Shown here: positions 753-38,295 of the stretch, in pieces
How the letters are laid out: every line of letters starts with the position of its first letter
Numbering within the stretch: the first letter of the stretch is position 1
DNA from: a virus
Taxonomy: Duplodnaviria > Heunggongvirae > Uroviricota > Caudoviricetes
Length of the DNA: 39,305 nt
Reading direction: 5' to 3' (one strand)
IMG/VR virus record: IMGVR_UViG_2706794689_000009
Made by a program: the position numbers and the translations under genes
Notes under the pieces: model-generated
What the model was told of the DNA's origin: nothing
Database searches by the model: none
Seen by the model: only the letters and a program-made list of their open reading frames with translations

Positions 753-1298
753 TTAACCCGCTTTTGGTTCTACCGCGTTAGATTTGCGACTTCTCTCAGT
801 TTCTTCCAAAATCTCTCTGACGCGTTCGTCAGACATACCTTCAAGCTGTAATGCAGCTATTCTTTTCCTTCCTTCTAAGCGGATTAGATCTTGATTTTCA
901 GGCTCTAACAACCGAGCTAAGTACTTGGCTCCATTCAGAACCAAATTTTTCGATAGCTGCTCTAAGTCTTTTTCATCAAGTGCGCTGATAATCGTCATAA
1001 TTATCTTCTTGCTTTCATCTTGATTTTCCTTGATCTCACACCGATTCACTTGTGATGCATCACTGAATCCACATAGCCACTCAACACTTACTCCTTCGAT
1101 AGACGCAATCTGAAGGGCGACACTTAAGGATGGCTCAGTGCCACGAGACAGATAATTGTTTAGTGTTGAAAATGAAAGCCCCCAATCTCTTGCTGCAGCT
1201 CTGACGCTGCGGGAGCCAATCAGCCTTTTCAGACGCTCAGCAATGCTTTCTTTTCTACCACCAGGAAAAGAAAGAGATGTTGTTGTTTGCTTGTTCAT
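753..1298 (-). CDS. Prophage repressor (Mu c-like, HTH DNA-binding)
   Basis: 181-aa ORF divergent from ner/A/B at the left end. The N-terminal region RLKRLIGSRSVRAAARDWGLSFSTLNNYLSRG resembles an HTH. Position matches the Mu c repressor. Confidence 0.75.
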   Translation of the reverse strand: MNKQTTTSLSFPGGRKESIAERLKRLIGSRSVRAAARDWGLSFSTLNNYLSRGTEPSLSVALQIASIEGVSVEWLCGFSDASQVNRCEIKENQDESKKIIMTIISALDEKDLEQLSKNLVLNGAKYLARLLEPENQDLIRLEGRKRIAALQLEGMSDERVREILEETERSRKSNAVEPKAG

Positions 1299-1430
1299 TT
1301 TCTTTTCTTCCTATCAATTTGAAATTATTAACTTTTAGTGTTGTCAGCAACCATTGATCCACAATAGACAAAAGAAAGATGTTTTTTTTGCTTTACATGA
1401 AGCAGAAGTGGATCAATACTTATATCAAAC

Positions 1431-1454
1431 TTGATAACTAAGTTTAGTTATCAA
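1431..1454 (+). promoter_or_regulatory. Perfect palindromic operator candidate TTGATAACTAA-gt-TTAGTTATCAA in the repressor/ner divergent region
   Basis: 11-bp perfect inverted arms with a 2-bp spacer, about 30 bp upstream of the ner start. A second inverted pair TGATCCAC/GTGGATCA lies at about 1354-1415, and a TTTACA -35-like hexamer near 1392. Likely early promoter/operator region. Confidence 0.5.
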
Positions 1455-1483
1455 ATTTCGTAACTTTTTAGGATAGATGAATC

Positions 1484-1714
1484 ATGGCGAGAAATGAAGT
1501 TAAGCCTGATTGGCATCCTCAAAGAATTTTGGGGGAAGTCAGAGCCAGAGAAGGAAGCATGAGGGCGCTGGCCCGTAAAGCTGGCGTGGGTCAGAACAAT
1601 CTGTACAACGCGGTATACCGCCATGTTCCCAAGTATGAGGGGATTATCGCGGAATGCCTGGGGGTGCCGCCCGAGGAGATTTGGCCCAGCCGCTACATTC
1701 GTAAGGTCGCGTAA
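1484..1714 (+). CDS. ner: Ner-like DNA-binding early regulator
   Basis: 76 aa. Conserved motifs DWHPQRILGEVRAR, NNLYNAVYRHVPKYEGIIAECLGVPPEEIWPSRY match the Mu Ner/Nlp family. Sits immediately upstream of the transposase. Confidence 0.9.
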   Translation: MARNEVKPDWHPQRILGEVRAREGSMRALARKAGVGQNNLYNAVYRHVPKYEGIIAECLGVPPEEIWPSRYIRKVA

Positions 1715-1716
1715 TT

Positions 1717-3804
1717 ATGTTTGCTTCAGTTAAAGAACTGGTTGGATTACCGGGGATGCCGGGAACGGAGCAAGGCGTTCGCTATTCAATCAGGAAGTAT
1801 GCAACCAGCGAAACCAGCAGACGCCGCAAGAAAGGCGCTAAAGGTTTTGAATACAGCATTGACTGTTTACCTGAAGTGACACAGCAGGCATTACGCGAAC
1901 GTTATGCCCTGCAACTGATGACGCAAAAAGCCGATGAATCACCGGCTCCGGTGGTGACAAAGGCCAGACGCTCGTCTGCCGTGGTTGATGCGGTGGAGGC
2001 ATATCGCGGATCACCACAACTGATGGTCGAACGCCTCAATGCCCTGACTGAAAACCAGCGCCAGGTGGCAGACGCACGCATTGCGATCGTCAGTGAGGTG
2101 CTGAAATTCACGCAACAACCCGGTTTCAGCTGCGCTAAAGCTATCCGGTTCCTCGTTAACAGCCTGGCACGATCACAACTGGACGAGCGCATTGTGGCAA
2201 TGGTTGAGACGGCGAACGCCAAAAAGGGAAACAGCCGCGCGTTGAGTGAAATCACGCTGAAACGCTGGATTGCGGCCTTTAACAAGGCACAGAACGCCGC
2301 TGAACGCCTGCTTTTACTGGCACCGGGTAAACGCCAGGAAATAAAAGCCGAAGATATTAACTGGCTGCCCGAATTTCTGGCGCAGTATCGCCAGTCAAAC
2401 GGCCGACCAATGACCGAGGCTTACGAGGATTTTGTTGCTGAATGGCAGCACCGGCACGCTGATGAGCCTTATATGCTCGATATCATGCCCTCTTATGACA
2501 CCATTCGCCGCGCAATGAAGAAACTGCCGGAAGTGGTGAAACAAAAAGGCCGGGTAACTGGCAGTGAATACCGTCAGCTTGAGGGATTCACGCGCCGCGA
2601 CTGGTCCAGAATGCCGGTGAATTATGTCTGGATTGGTGACGGTCACGGCATGAAGCTGAAATGCGCGCACCCGGTTCACGGGCGGCCATTCGCACCGGAA
2701 GTGACCTTTGTTATCGACGGTGGCACGCGCTTTGTGGTGGGCTGGAGCCTTGACCTGGCTGAAAATGTTTTCGCCGTAGCCGGTGCCATACAGCACGGTA
2801 TTCGCCATCATGGCAAACCGTTTCTGTATTACTCGGATAATGGCTCCGGGGAAACCGCCGACGTCCTGGATAAGGAGATTGTGGGGATACTGCCACGACT
2901 GGGGATTAATCACCCGACAGGGATTGCCGGTAATCCGCAGGGACGGGGCATTATCGAACGGCTTAACCGCACATTACCGATGCGCATAGCCCGTAAATAC
3001 CGCACCTATTTCGGGAAAGGAGCAGATCGCGAGACGTTACGTAAAACCAACCGCGATTTACGCTCGGCATTCAGTGCCCTGCAACAGGGCAAACGGCTGA
3101 ACGCCCGGCAGCAGTCAGCGATGCGTGATTTACCGTCCTGGTCTGAACTGATTGATGCCATTCGTGACGGTGTTGAGTGGTACAACAACCGGCCGCACGA
3201 TGAATTACCCATGAAGCCGAACGGTAAACATTACAGCCCGGCGGAGTTCAGAAAAAAACGCCTGGCGGAAGAGGACACGGAAATTGAATGGCTGTCCGAT
3301 GTTGAACTGCGGGATATGTTCCGGCCGATGGTGGAGCGCCCTGTAAGACGCTGTGAAATACGCTGGCTGAATAATATTTACTACGCGCCCGAGCTGCGTG
3401 ACGAGCATGGCCGTAAGGTACTTATCAGCTATGACATTCATGATGCCGAACGAATTACCGTGCGCCGCCCGGATGGCAGCGTGATTTGCGAGGCGGTATG
3501 GGACGGCAATAAACGCGAAGCCTTCCCTGTCAGCGCGGAATACTACAAACAGCAGCAGCGCCTTAAAGGCATGCGTAAACGCGCAGAGGAAAAAATCCGT
3601 GATGCCGAGGATGAGGTTGTCAACGTGCTGGAGCACAAGCCGCAGGAGCCCTGGCTGGAAAACATATACCGCCCTGTGGGTAATACGGTGACCGTTCAGC
3701 AACCGGTCGCTGACGATGAACCTGATGAAGAATACGAGCGTAATTTCCAGCGGGGATTGCAACTGCTCGAAGCGAAATTAAAAGAAAGTGATCCGCTGGC
3801 CTGA
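1717..3804 (+). CDS. A: Mu-type DDE transposase A (MuA)
   Basis: 695-aa ORF with N-terminal DNA-binding region and central integrase-like core (VWIGDGHGMKLK...SDNGSGETADV). Position after ner. Confidence 0.93.
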   Translation: MFASVKELVGLPGMPGTEQGVRYSIRKYATSETSRRRKKGAKGFEYSIDCLPEVTQQALRERYALQLMTQKADESPAPVVTKARRSSAVVDAVEAYRGSPQLMVERLNALTENQRQVADARIAIVSEVLKFTQQPGFSCAKAIRFLVNSLARSQLDERIVAMVETANAKKGNSRALSEITLKRWIAAFNKAQNAAERLLLLAPGKRQEIKAEDINWLPEFLAQYRQSNGRPMTEAYEDFVAEWQHRHADEPYMLDIMPSYDTIRRAMKKLPEVVKQKGRVTGSEYRQLEGFTRRDWSRMPVNYVWIGDGHGMKLKCAHPVHGRPFAPEVTFVIDGGTRFVVGWSLDLAENVFAVAGAIQHGIRHHGKPFLYYSDNGSGETADVLDKEIVGILPRLGINHPTGIAGNPQGRGIIERLNRTLPMRIARKYRTYFGKGADRETLRKTNRDLRSAFSALQQGKRLNARQQSAMRDLPSWSELIDAIRDGVEWYNNRPHDELPMKPNGKHYSPAEFRKKRLAEEDTEIEWLSDVELRDMFRPMVERPVRRCEIRWLNNIYYAPELRDEHGRKVLISYDIHDAERITVRRPDGSVICEAVWDGNKREAFPVSAEYYKQQQRLKGMRKRAEEKIRDAEDEVVNVLEHKPQEPWLENIYRPVGNTVTVQQPVADDEPDEEYERNFQRGLQLLEAKLKESDPLA

Positions 3805-3886
3805 AATAAAAAAATAACCCGAGGGGTGACTCAGGTTATTTGAGGTTTCAGTCTCGGAGAATGCTGTCTCAAGCGAGGTGAATAAT

Positions 3887-4819
3887 ATGACCGATATTAA
3901 CGATGTAATCAAGACCATTGATGAACTTATTGATGGCGGCGTACTGACGCAGTATGCCATCGCCAGAGAGGCGGGAATTTCCGACGGCACATTATCGGCT
4001 TTCCGTAAGGGAAAATATAAAGGCGATAACGCTGCTGTGGCTGCTTCCCTGCGCTCCTGGTATGAGAACTGGAATAAACAAAGCGCACTGCCGGAACCGC
4101 CGCAGTTTGTGGAAACTCAGACAGTCCAGGAGCTGCGCGCACTGTTTCAGGCGGTTCGCCTGATGGGCTGTATTAACGTTATTGTGGGCGTACCGGGTGT
4201 GGGTAAAACGGCCACTGCCCGTAATTACTGCCAGGAGCAACCAAACACCTGGATGATCACCCTGTCACCCGCGCACTCCAGCGTCACGGAGTGTCTGCTG
4301 GAGCTGGCCGATGCGCTGGGGATTGATTACACCCGCGCGAACAAAGGGGCATTATCCCGCGCCATCCGCCGTCGCCTGATGGGAACGCGTGGACTGGTGA
4401 TTGTGGATGAGGCGGATCATCTTGGTATTGACGGTCTGGAGCAACTCCGGGCAATTCAGGACGCCACGGGGATCGGGATGGTGCTTATTGGTAACCCGCG
4501 CGGATTGTTTAAAGGTGGACGCCGCGCCTTTGATGATTTATCGCGCCTGTTCAGCCGTCTTGCCCGTACAAAACAACTTCGCAAGGCCAAAAAGGCGGAT
4601 GTGCTGGCCATTGCCATGGCGTGGGGGATCAGTGGTGAGGCCGAGCTGGCCGTCATGCAGGCTATCGCTGAAAAGCCGGGAGCGTTACGCGTTCTGACAC
4701 ATACGCTTAACCAGGCGTGGCTCACCGCCAGCGGTGAAGGCGCGGCGCTGACAGAAAAACATATTAATGCGGCCTTTAAAGAGGTTTATACCAACCCTGA
4801 ATTACTCTCACAGGTGTGA
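3887..4819 (+). CDS. B: Mu transposition ATPase B (MuB, AAA+ target DNA activator)
   Basis: Walker A GVPGVGKT and Walker B LVIVDEADHL. Overall co-linearity with Mu B (LPEPPQFVETQTV, KPGALRVL). ATG 3887 chosen after a GAGGTG ribosome-binding site; the frame opens at GTG 3878. Confidence 0.9.
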   Translation: MTDINDVIKTIDELIDGGVLTQYAIAREAGISDGTLSAFRKGKYKGDNAAVAASLRSWYENWNKQSALPEPPQFVETQTVQELRALFQAVRLMGCINVIVGVPGVGKTATARNYCQEQPNTWMITLSPAHSSVTECLLELADALGIDYTRANKGALSRAIRRRLMGTRGLVIVDEADHLGIDGLEQLRAIQDATGIGMVLIGNPRGLFKGGRRAFDDLSRLFSRLARTKQLRKAKKADVLAIAMAWGISGEAELAVMQAIAEKPGALRVLTHTLNQAWLTASGEGAALTEKHINAAFKEVYTNPELLSQV

Positions 4820-9495: not shown

Positions 9496-10018
9496 ATGAA
9501 TCGCGCTTCCCTGATTACCTTAATACATGTCGCAAAACGCGATCTACAGCTTGACCATGATACCTATACATCCGCGCTGCTGGCAGCCACCGGCAAATCC
9601 AGTTGCCGTGATATGTCACCCGGTGAGTTATCCCGCGTGCTGGATGTTTTCAAAAAACGCGGTTTTAAAGTGCGTCAGANNNNNNNNNNNNNNNNNNNNN
9701 NNNNNNNNNNNNNNNNNNNNNNNNNNNNNNNNNNNNNNNNNNNNNNNNNNNNNNNNNNNNNNNNNNNNNNNNNNNNNNNNNNNNNNNNNNNNNNNNNNNN
9801 NNNNNNNNNNNNNNNNNNNNNNNNNNNNNNNNNNNNNNNNNNNNNNNNNNNNNNNNNNNNNNNNNNNNNNNNNNNNNNNNNNNNNNNNNNNNNNNNNNNN
9901 NNNNNNNNNNNNNNNNNNNNNNNNNNNNNNNNTGCTGGCAGCCCTGGATATGTCGGAACGTGCAGTGATGAGTTATGAGCGTGTTTGCAGGCTGTATGAA
10001 AAATCATTCCCCCGTTAA
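9496..10018 (+). CDS. gemA: GemA-like early regulatory protein, interrupted by N-mask 9680-9932
   Basis: N-terminus MNRASLITLIHVAKRDLQLDHDTYTSALL...LSRVLDVFKKRGF fits the Mu gp16/GemA family. A C-terminal piece after the mask ends at 10018. Frame continuity across the mask cannot be verified. Confidence 0.55.
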
Positions 10019-10337: not shown

Positions 10338-10597
10338 NNNNNNNNNNNNNNNNNNNNNNNNNNNNNNNNNNNNNNNNNNNNNNNNNNNNNNNNNNNNNNN
10401 NNNNNNNNNNNNNNNNNNNNNNNNNNNNNNNNNNNNNNNNNNNNNNNNNNNNNNNNNNNNNNNNNNNNNNNNNNNNNNNNNNNNNNNNNNNNNNNNNNNN
10501 NNNNNNNNNNNNNNNNNNNNNNNNNNNNNNNNNNNNNNNNNNNNNNNNNNNNNNNNNNNNNNNNNNNNNNNNNNNNNNNNNNNNNNNNNNNNNNNNN

Positions 10598-33471: not shown

Positions 33472-33736
33472 ATNNNNNNNNNNNNNNNNNNNNNNNNNNN
33501 NNNNNNNNNNNNNNNNNNNNNNNNNNNNNNNNNNNNNNNNNNNNNNNNNNNNNNNNNNNNNNNNNNNNNNNNNNNNNNNNNNNNNNNNNNNNNNNNNNNN
33601 NNNNNNNNNNNNNNNNNNNNNNNNNNNNNNNNNNNNNNNNNNNNNNNNNNNNNNNNNNNNNNNNNNNNNNNNNNNNNNNNNNNNNNNNNNNNNNNNNNNN
33701 NNNNNNNNNNNNNNNNNNNNNNNNNNNNNNNNNNNN

Positions 33737-33840: not shown

Positions 33841-34090
33841 NNNNNNNNNNNNNNNNNNNNNNNNNNNNNNNNNNNNNNNNNNNNNNNNNNNNNNNNNNNN
33901 NNNNNNNNNNNNNNNNNNNNNNNNNNNNNNNNNNNNNNNNNNNNNNNNNNNNNNNNNNNNNNNNNNNNNNNNNNNNNNNNNNNNNNNNNNNNNNNNNNNN
34001 NNNNNNNNNNNNNNNNNNNNNNNNNNNNNNNNNNNNNNNNNNNNNNNNNNNNNNNNNNNNNNNNNNNNNNNNNNNNNNNNNNNNNNNNNN

Positions 34091-37961: not shown

Positions 37962-38047
37962 GATCAAACTCATAAATTTTCGCTAATGACATTTCGTGTT
38001 ATTTGTTGTATCAATTAAATAAATCAAATCGATCGTTTTTGTCGATC
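37962..38047 (+). promoter_or_regulatory. mom upstream control region with three GATC (Dam) sites at about 37962, 38031 and 38044
   Basis: AT-rich intergenic region immediately upstream of com with GATC sites clustered, including the palindromic GTCGATCGAT. In Mu, the mom promoter is controlled by Dam methylation of three upstream GATC sites (OxyR binding). Confidence 0.45.
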
Positions 38048-38094
38048 GATTGAGTGATAAAGATATCAACAACAAAGCAGGAGGTTATGCGGCC

Positions 38095-38295
38095 ATGTAT
38101 CGAAACATACGGTGCCGACATTGTAACAAGCTACTGGCACGAGCCAGCTTCAGTTATCTGGAAGTTAAATGTCCGCGCTGTAAAACCCTCAATCAAATCA
38201 CATCTCAGAGCGCCACAGAGCACCCCACATACACAAGGAAATCCTGTCGTGGGGAACAGAAAGCAAGTTACATCCCGTATCATCAGCACGCCTGA
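38095..38295 (+). CDS. com: Com zinc-finger translational activator of mom
   Basis: From ATG 38095 (AGGAGG 10 nt upstream): [35 protein letters not shown]...EHPT, co-linear with Mu Com including the CxxC-(16)-CxxC zinc finger. Confidence 0.8.

Follow-up and report, generated by a model that had tools for sequence, protein, structure and literature searches.

Which proteins act on the inverted repeats that separate the repressor gene from ner in a Mu-like E. coli prophage? The window, here meaning the whole stretch of 39,305 nucleotides that was analysed (IMG/VR virus record IMGVR_UViG_2706794689_000009), contains such a prophage at its left end, with a leftward repressor gene followed by ner, A, and B, which are read rightward. 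A preliminary description of the window had pointed out a palindrome close to ner and a second, widely spaced inverted pair upstream of it, and had proposed both as candidate sites for the repressor and/or Ner.

Gene Context of the Switch Region

The genes on both sides of the switch region are the following.

753-1298, minus strand: prophage repressor of 181 amino acids (PHROG 3037, E = 4.5e-60; weak match to HTH_3)
1484-1714, plus strand: ner, 76 amino acids (PF13693, E = 1e-21; PHROG 769; 1NER, E = 3.7e-13)
1717-3804, plus strand: Mu-type transposase A
3878-4819, plus strand: Mu-type B

The matches to PHROG 3037, PF13693, and 1NER, the last being the structure of Mu Ner, bear out the repressor and ner calls of the preliminary description. 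The repressor has a helix-turn-helix of the CI/XRE type with the recognition helix FSTLNNYLSRG. In a domain search, the Mu-type N-terminal DNA-binding domain PF02316 was found in A only (residues 6-141); the repressor, matched by PHROG 3037 and weakly by HTH_3, is without it. The region between the repressor and ner is 185 bp long and has a GC content of 27.6%.

Each end of the prophage carries three ATTTGATACYG repeats, in inverted orientation (plus strand, 523, 618, and 670; minus strand, 39031, 39066, and 39088). The end sequence TATAACCAGGTGAATC, which is common to the window and to the related locus L001, starts at about 507; the right end lies at about 39114, and GACA flanks the prophage on both sides. 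The insertion splits a tnpB gene of the IS66 family (ORF 196-519, PF05717). Four masked runs of N lie inside the prophage (9680-9932, 10338-10597, 33474-33736, and 33841-34090). A GATC-rich palindrome, AATCGATCG-TTTTTGT-CGATCGATT, is found at 38027-38051. It directly precedes an ORF for a Com-like zinc-finger protein (38050-38295) and a Mom-like ORF, and it recalls the mom regulatory region of Mu that is controlled by Dam and OxyR.

A Long Palindrome Upstream of ner

Three nested elements can be drawn around the palindrome, none of them assigned to a strand.

1431-1454: perfect palindrome TTGATAACTAA-GT-TTAGTTATCAA with 11-nt arms, proposed core of the Ner operator
1428-1457: 30-bp dyad AACTTGATAACT-AAGTTT-AGTTATCAAATT, read as 12-6-12 or equivalently as 11-8-11, proposed Ner-binding unit
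1421-1464: extended Ner module, proposed, with four GATAAC/TATCAA-type half-sites at a periodicity of 13 bp

The palindrome with 11-bp arms had been placed about 30 bp upstream of ner, and it is indeed present at 1431-1454, ending 29 nt before the ATG at 1484. No other perfect palindrome in the 39.3-kb window is as long, and it extends to 15-nt arms with 93% complementarity (1427-1441 and 1444-1458). By chance, 0.09 palindromes with perfect arms of 11 nt or more and a spacer no longer than 8 nt would be expected per window (P = 0.075), and the probability of one in a 185-mer of the intergenic composition (27.6% GC) is 0.0017. The pattern TTGATAAC-N8-GTTATCAA is unique in the window even when 3 mismatches are allowed. 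The half-sites of the extended module are TATCAA at 1423, TTGATAAC at 1431, GTTATCAA at 1447, and TTCGTAAC at 1457, of which the outer two (1423 and 1457) are weaker. This module is drawn from a direct repeat (D1) and inverted repeats (I1/I2), together with an alignment consensus dyad of about 40 bp.

The Ner protein is 100% identical in loci L001-L005 and L013-L018. Conservation of the palindromes among relatives had been named as one of the points on which their proposed role depends, and the outer 8-nt arms are invariant in all identical-Ner loci. The TTGATAAC/GTTATCAA arms are never substituted there, and all changes fall in the central spacer, whose 8 bp read TAAGTTTA, TAACTTTG, or AAAATTTA. 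The change C1430T in L015 makes the 15-nt arms perfect. Because the arms are fixed and the center is variable, the functional unit is suggested to be a dyad of about 30 bp, possibly 44 bp, with a tolerant spacer. The identical-Ner loci are 94-100% identical across 1447-1483, so the invariance of the right arm alone proves little.

Predicted Promoters Around the Palindrome

The predicted promoter elements of the intergenic region are as follows.

1392-1420, plus strand: predicted Pe, TTTACA (1392-1397), 17-nt spacer, AATACT (1415-1420), start near 1427, from a sigma-70-like scan
1470-1498, minus strand: candidate leftward repressor promoter, TTCATT (1498-1493), 17 nt, TATCCT (1475-1470), start near 1463, placed by position
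1324-1350, minus strand: second, proximal leftward candidate, TTGCTG-15-AATAAT, 8/12 with a short spacer, predicted start near 1317, kept in L001; low confidence
1366-1388, plus strand: ACAAAAGAAAG block with a T-run, an A/T tract resembling an UP element, just upstream of the Pe -35

Pe is the sole sigma-70-like match on the plus strand in the intergenic scan, and both of its hexamers are invariant in 7/7 type-A loci. The arrangement of TTTACA-17-AATACT at 1392-1420 predicts a start near 1427, which would put the palindrome at about +5 to +28 of the transcript. A consensus scan for a strong leftward promoter returned no site at threshold. The leftward candidate at 1470-1498 agrees with the consensus at 7/12 positions, too few for the thresholds of the scans, and shares sequence with the ribosome-binding site and first codons of ner, so it is placed by position. 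The ACAAAAGAAAG block is kept in 14/14 aligned loci whatever their repressor or Ner type, and its T-run varies from T6 to T8 among near-identical prophages; the tract might serve as an UP-like element, bend the DNA, or bind a host factor.

Comparable Dyads in Mu and D108

In phage Mu, the Ner site AGCTAGCTAAGT-TTTTAC-ACTTAGTTAAAT at 1029-1058 is a 30-bp 12-6-12 dyad like that of the window, and lies between promoter features (991-1028 and 1063-1101) annotated as part of the Ner binding region/site. The Ner of the window is a homologue of Mu Ner (45% identity; 1NER, E = 3.7e-13). In both phages, the dyad starts 36 bp after the start of the TTTACA -35 (about +2 of Pe) and ends 13 bp before the -10 of the leftward promoter. 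An ungapped alignment of the two regions anchored on the -35 gives 62/125 identities; other offsets average 36 and reach 51 at most. The Pe of the window aligns base-for-base with that of Mu (TTTACA-17-TATCTT, annotated 991-1028), and the leftward promoters stand in the same register to the dyad (TTTAAA-17-TAATCT in Mu, annotated 1063-1101; TTCATT-17-TATCCT in the window, predicted). As the -35, the -10, the dyad, and the leftward promoter all coincide, the window appears to reproduce the face-to-face Pe/Pc arrangement of Mu, with the dyad between the predicted start sites.

The Mu Ner consensus, which we take to be ANYTARCTAAGT, serves here to define the Mu specificity class only. Each half of the window dyad matches it at 9/12 in register, and the 6/348 intergenic 12-mers that reach at least 9/12 all lie inside the palindrome. 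An out-of-register 10/12 match, TGATAACTAAGT, is not conserved among the identical-Ner loci, and neither is the CTAAGT part. The two systems differ in three respects. The half-site is TTGATAAC in the window and TAGCTAAG in Mu, the Ner recognition helix is QNNLYNAVYR in the window and PTTLANALER in Mu, and the partner repressor of the window is of the CI/XRE type and not a homologue of Mu c.

Phage D108 carries an 11-8-11 inverted repeat with an AT-rich spacer upstream of ner, CCGTGAGCTAC-TTTATAGC-GTAGCTCACGG, in the same frame as the window dyad, which reads AACTTGATAAC-TAAGTTTA-GTTATCAAATT when set out as 11-8-11. The D108 arms are GC-rich and without sequence similarity to those of the window; D108 thus shows that Ner alleles about 40-50% identical can have unrelated half-sites. 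The role of the Mu and D108 dyads is the binding of Ner. Work on Ner by Tolias, Kukolj, and DuBow and by Goosen and van de Putte is said to agree with both dyads. In Vibrio phage vB-Vv-ZX4290 (L028), the region upstream of ner holds a compact palindrome, AATTAACTAAG-TTAGTTA, and a third copy of TTAACTAAC. This palindrome matches the Mu consensus assumed above at 12/12, and the Ner helix of the phage is Mu-like (TTLANAL). By sequence comparison, L028 thus shows independently that the helix of Ner and its site vary together.

Yersinia phage vB_YpM_5/Tongde and related enterobacterial Mu-like prophages have a TTATCCG/GGATAAC module between the -10 and AACTTTTTAGGATA, the position taken by the module of the window. 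The two modules align without gaps and share the 13-bp periodicity and the GATAAC/GTTATC core; GATAAC-N8-(G/C)TTATC is present in L036 and L038. The flanks of the Yersinia-type module are GC-rich (CCG/CGG), whereas those of the window are TT/AA; in several cases its middle repeat is direct and not inverted, and the accompanying Ner is 43-55% identical to that of the window. In the literature looked at, no experimental characterisation of the Yersinia-type modules was found. A more distant parallel is EnrR, a Ner-like xenogeneic silencer whose structure in complex with DNA has been solved (PDB 7F9H) and whose fold is homologous to the Ner of the window (E = 2.9e-11). Two EnrR monomers bind an AT-rich palindrome with ATATC...GATAT (PMC9023278), which recalls the TATCAA...TTGATA of the window. 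EnrR, however, is a chromosomal global regulator whose monomers are close-packed on CTATAG, and the spacing and orientation of its half-sites are unlike those of the window.

Natural Mosaics Separate the Palindrome From the Repressor

Related DNA is present in 22/5,426 complete E. coli genomes. The megablast match classes in E. coli start at window position 700, at 1366, or exactly at 1427, which is the left edge of the extended palindrome. Among the loci with an identical Ner, L001-L005 and L015-L018 (the latter four being IMG/VR loci) all carry TTGATAAC-N8-GTTATCAA. Three repressor types occur among these loci, 94%, ~47%, and ~46% identical to that of the window over the N-terminal 90 residues, and the heptamer GATCCAC is kept in the type-A loci only.

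The reverse combination is found in contigs retrieved via repressor homologues (L029, L031, L033, L035, and L036). Their repressors are 47-69% identical overall, with a near-identical helix, FSTLNNYL[S/T]RG, and they keep GATCCAC at both positions. Their Ner is of the Yersinia type or more distant (43-55% identical to that of the window), and from just after the -10 their DNA is a wholly different module of the TTATCCG/GGATAAC type. Taken as sequence evidence, this is a double dissociation, in which the palindrome tracks the Ner allele through three types of repressor and GATCCAC tracks the recognition helix of the repressor through two types of Ner. These natural mosaics, with the same Ner beside different repressors and the reverse, imply that the palindrome goes with Ner and GATCCAC with the repressor. 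The earlier proposal of sites for "the repressor and/or Ner" gains comparative support in this way and can be divided, with the palindrome provisionally given to Ner and GATCCAC to the repressor.

The same loci bear on the reading that the palindrome is a third, O3-like repressor operator or is shared by the repressor and Ner. In Mu, repressor site O3 presumably overlaps the Ner region, and the STLNNY of the recognition helix is common to all three repressor types, which makes a common site conceivable. The palindrome contains no GATCCAC-like sequence, however, and is absent where the repressor helix is near-identical (L029-L036) while being present beside repressors that are ~46% identical. 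We therefore regard an operator of this kind as very improbable.

Further alleles and intermediate Ner relatives were looked for in several collections. An exact-pattern scan of IMG/VR for TTGATAAC-N8-GTTATCAA gave 40 matches, of which 4 adjoin ner, all at previously known loci, and so yielded no new alleles. Ner relatives at 60-95% identity were absent from the protein database, which held only identical or 99% ones, and a scan of genome contigs for Ner relatives returned only those of at most 45% identity.

Ner or the Transposase as Owner of the Module

The N-terminal domain of A could instead bind the palindrome, which would then be an enhancer like the internal activation sequence of Mu or an autoregulatory site. 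It is A that has the PF02316 domain, to which the repressor is not homologous, and the palindrome always co-occurs with the A allele of the window. The Ner allele of the window is likewise always accompanied by its A (A at least 94% identical), so the dissociation of Ner from A has to be read from the homologous modules of other alleles. In these, the module follows Ner while A diverges to ~50%. L033 and L031 have Ner proteins that are 82% identical with the same recognition helix, A proteins that are 49-55% identical, and module DNA identical at 38/42 positions. For L027 and L024, the figures are 71% for Ner, ~50% for A, and 29/38 for the modules. In L024, residues 81-230 of A are 95% identical to those of the window, its Ner is 43% identical, and the palindrome is absent. 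Across these relatives, the sequences indicate that the module between the Pe -10 and ner is one that follows Ner and not the transposase.

L024 is LC727881, a Mu-like phage inserted in an Stx2c phage. Residues 1-80 of its A are 66% identical to those of the window, and a mosaic junction lies inside A near codon 45.

Read on the opposite strand, the right arm is ATTTGATAACT and agrees with the end repeats ATTTGATACYG at 9/11 positions, which would also fit binding by A. At up to 2 mismatches, however, the end-repeat pattern is expected 9.6 times per window by chance. The TTGATA palindrome is absent from phages with the same end repeats (ATTTGATACT) but a different, Yersinia-type Ner, so the likeness is probably coincidental, and it was dropped as an explanation of the arms. 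Moreover, the Mu enhancer, as we understand it, overlaps O1-O2 upstream of Pe and not the Ner dyad. Ownership of the palindrome by the transposase is accordingly very improbable in our judgment, and Ner is very likely the protein to which it belongs, as far as comparison of sequences can tell.

A Possible Hairpin in the Early Transcript

Since the predicted start near 1427 puts the palindrome at +5 to +28, it might act mainly as RNA, namely as a 5'-terminal stem-loop of the ner-A-B transcript that affects mRNA stability or ner translation, with the DNA symmetry as a by-product. In the predicted fold of the segment 1427-1490, positions 1431-1454 form a stem of 10 bp (-12.6 kcal/mol, z = -2.58). 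In a consensus hairpin of 7 loci, 8/16 pairs still pair after changes on both sides, and A1446G in L001 converts a pair to a U-G wobble. Compensatory changes are equally expected, however, for a dyad-symmetric protein site, and the variant AAAATTTA of L002-L005 puts an A-A mismatch in the stem. The stem is AU-rich and its z-score is only moderate, and the Mu and D108 dyads, at the same place, have Ner binding as their role. A role mainly as RNA is thus improbable. The RNA and protein readings are not exclusive, and the hairpin may be a secondary consequence of the dyad to which Ner is proposed to bind.

The Spaced Pair and the Putative Repressor Sites

The elements upstream of the palindrome are the following, again without strand.

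1353-1362 and 1408-1417: inverted pair ATTGATCCAC and GTGGATCAAT, 10 nt each, with 45 nt between
1399-1414: putative repressor operator on the right, a 16-bp dyad of imperfect symmetry (GAAGCAG-AA-GTGGATC) within the Pe spacer
1356-1364: putative left repressor site, lone half-site GATCCACAA, inside the left arm 1353-1362

The inverted pair with its spacing of about 45 bp exists, slightly longer than first described, and its interpretation as one long-range element has to be given up. Its left arm contains the half-site 1356-1364, and its right arm is the good half of a local 16-bp dyad. A perfect 10-nt inverted repeat with a gap of up to 100 nt occurs in 4.8% of random 185-mers of the intergenic composition, and 1.8% contain the heptamer twice when 1 mismatch is tolerated. 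The spaced pair alone is marginal as a sequence feature, and its significance comes from conservation in relatives.

In the alignment of seven type-A loci, the left GATCCAC (1356-1362) is an island of conservation, with a mean pairwise identity of ~0.73 vs ~0.35 in its flanks, and the block 1403-1420 is nearly invariant. The column of the right site reads GATCCAC-AA-GTGGATC in 7/7 type-A loci. It is perfect in L033 (as the 16-mer GATCCACAAGTGGATC) and has 1-3 mismatches elsewhere; in the window it is 4/7 symmetric, with 3 mismatches to the ideal dyad. Among the aligned loci, the 16-mer is absent from L037 (same helix), from L038 (near-identical helix), and from repressor types B, C, and D, and the left GATCCAC is absent from the other repressor types and from L037, which keeps GTGGATC at the right only. 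The switch region of the window holds at least 2 copies of the motif, GATCCAC at 1356 and GTGGATC at 1408, and the latter lies in the Pe spacer, a classic position for repression.

The right arm of the pair lies in the Pe spacer and the start of the -10. On a rival reading, the pair does not consist of operators, the right arm being conserved as promoter (GGATCAATACT) and the left arm being a chance match. The pair alone has P ~0.05, the left site is a lone half-site whose extra flanking ATT is not conserved, and L037 lacks the left copy. In addition, GGATCAATACT is kept with other repressor types (L002 and L038), and part of the conservation of the right arm is probably, from its sequence, that of a promoter and not of an operator. 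Against this, 6 loci with flanks of ~35% pairwise identity hold GATCCAC (up to 1 mismatch) in one and the same column. The type-A-specific part of the right block, CCAC-AA-GTGG, lies upstream of the shared -10 and forms part of a perfect 16-bp palindrome in L033. Type-C phages have a repeat of their own, ATCTAC, found once upstream and once across the -10 region, which, as a sequence pattern, supports a general rule of repressor-specific motifs. On balance, the promoter-plus-chance reading is rather unlikely, and the assignment of the GATCCAC copies to the repressor is reasonably probable given their distribution among the relatives.

Two further observations concern these half-sites. Both contain the Dam site GATC (1356-1359 and 1411-1414), the second abutting the Pe -10, and Dam methylation could affect the activity of Pe or the binding of the repressor, an effect with parallels in some transposon promoters. 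The left half-site is centered about 42 bp upstream of the start predicted for TTGCTG-15-AATAAT, and autoactivation by the repressor is possible; lambda CI activates PRM from such a position.

The layout of the window resembles that of Mu O1-O3 in that the repressor sites lie ahead of Pe and across it, whereas the Ner site follows the start. The Mu repressor, in contrast to that of the window, has the DNA-binding domain of MuA, and its operators double as enhancer; one paper on Mu shows operator and enhancer as a combined element. Coupling of operator and enhancer is not expected in the window because its repressor is of the CI/XRE type and without PF02316. CTTTT-type motifs at 1302, 1333, 1372 (minus strand), and 1464 resemble the CTTTTYNRTAAR repeats of the Mu operator/enhancer (L007, 900-1030). 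As the repressor is without a MuA-like domain, these motifs are sequence-based candidates for a transposition enhancer.

Other Candidate Signals

Several known signals were also considered. The IHF consensus WATCAANNNNTTR was not matched on either strand in 1250-1520; the Mu switch has an IHF site. A DnaA box, TGATCCACA, matches TTATCCACA at 8/9 by eye. It was dropped because a 9-mer with one mismatch is expected about once per 5 kb and because, to our knowledge, Mu replication is independent of DnaA. A Fur box was rejected too. GATAAC...GTTATC resembles GATAAT...ATTATC, but, by eye, no ungapped alignment does better than about 10/19, and the spacing differs by one. A small ORF at 1378-1440 (20 codons, ending in the palindrome) is not a gene; in L001 and L015-L017, a T-run of another length breaks its frame.

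A Proposed Lysis/Lysogeny Switch

Taken as a whole, the region is likely a divergent lysis/lysogeny switch of a Mu-like prophage, built from a Ner dyad and separate repressor sites, as its sequence and its relatives suggest. From the gene identities, the statistics, the co-variation, and the Mu register, we infer protein binding, start sites, and regulatory consequences as follows. Pe would drive ner-A-B. The Ner operator would consist of two half-sites of about 11-12 bp (AAYTTGATAAC / GTTATCAAATT) around a non-specific spacer of 6-8 bp. It would cover about +2 to +31 of the transcript from Pe (1428-1457), and weaker half-sites on either side would extend it to 1421-1464. Ner made from the first early transcript would bind this dyad and damp Pe, and bound Ner would block leftward transcription toward the repressor gene from the promoter facing Pe. 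The phage would thereby be committed to lytic growth, as in Mu and D108, where Ner damps Pe, blocks repressor transcription, and commits the phage to the lytic course. The CI-like repressor would recognize the heptamer GATCCAC/GTGGATC in its two copies. Bound at 1399-1414 in the Pe spacer, it would exclude RNA polymerase, and the half-site at 1356-1364, 55 bp upstream, may add cooperativity or looping or may regulate the promoter of the repressor itself.

A bolder joint reading, which we consider doubtful, is that the region is made of exchangeable cassettes of protein and site, that control of the enhancer by the repressor has been lost or replaced, and that GATC makes the switch sensitive to Dam. 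If it were true, the cassettes would be the CI-like repressor with its GATCCAC sites and Ner with its dyad, independently exchangeable in the enterobacterial Mu-like lineage. Their junction would fall no more than a few bases from the Pe -10 and start, so that immunity and anti-immunity specificities would reassort freely. The control of the enhancer by the repressor that is a hallmark of Mu would have disappeared, or the Ner dyad or the CTTTT-type motifs would have taken its place, since the repressor no longer has the DNA-binding domain of the transposase. A switch sensitive to Dam methylation would also respond to replication.

The operators proposed here are of a known kind, in an ordinary Mu-like switch with a new specificity, and they extend the Mu/D108 paradigm without overturning current understanding. 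They provide testable assignments of operators in a family of Mu-like prophages that recurs but is uncharacterised. STEC strains, O157:H7 among them, carry relatives, and Stx-converting phages contain a related Mu-like phage whose Ner is different. Natural mosaics alone can reveal which protein owns which site. The combination of a Mu-type Ner/A/B module with a non-Mu repressor raises the questions of where the enhancer of such phages lies and how lysogeny blocks their transposition.
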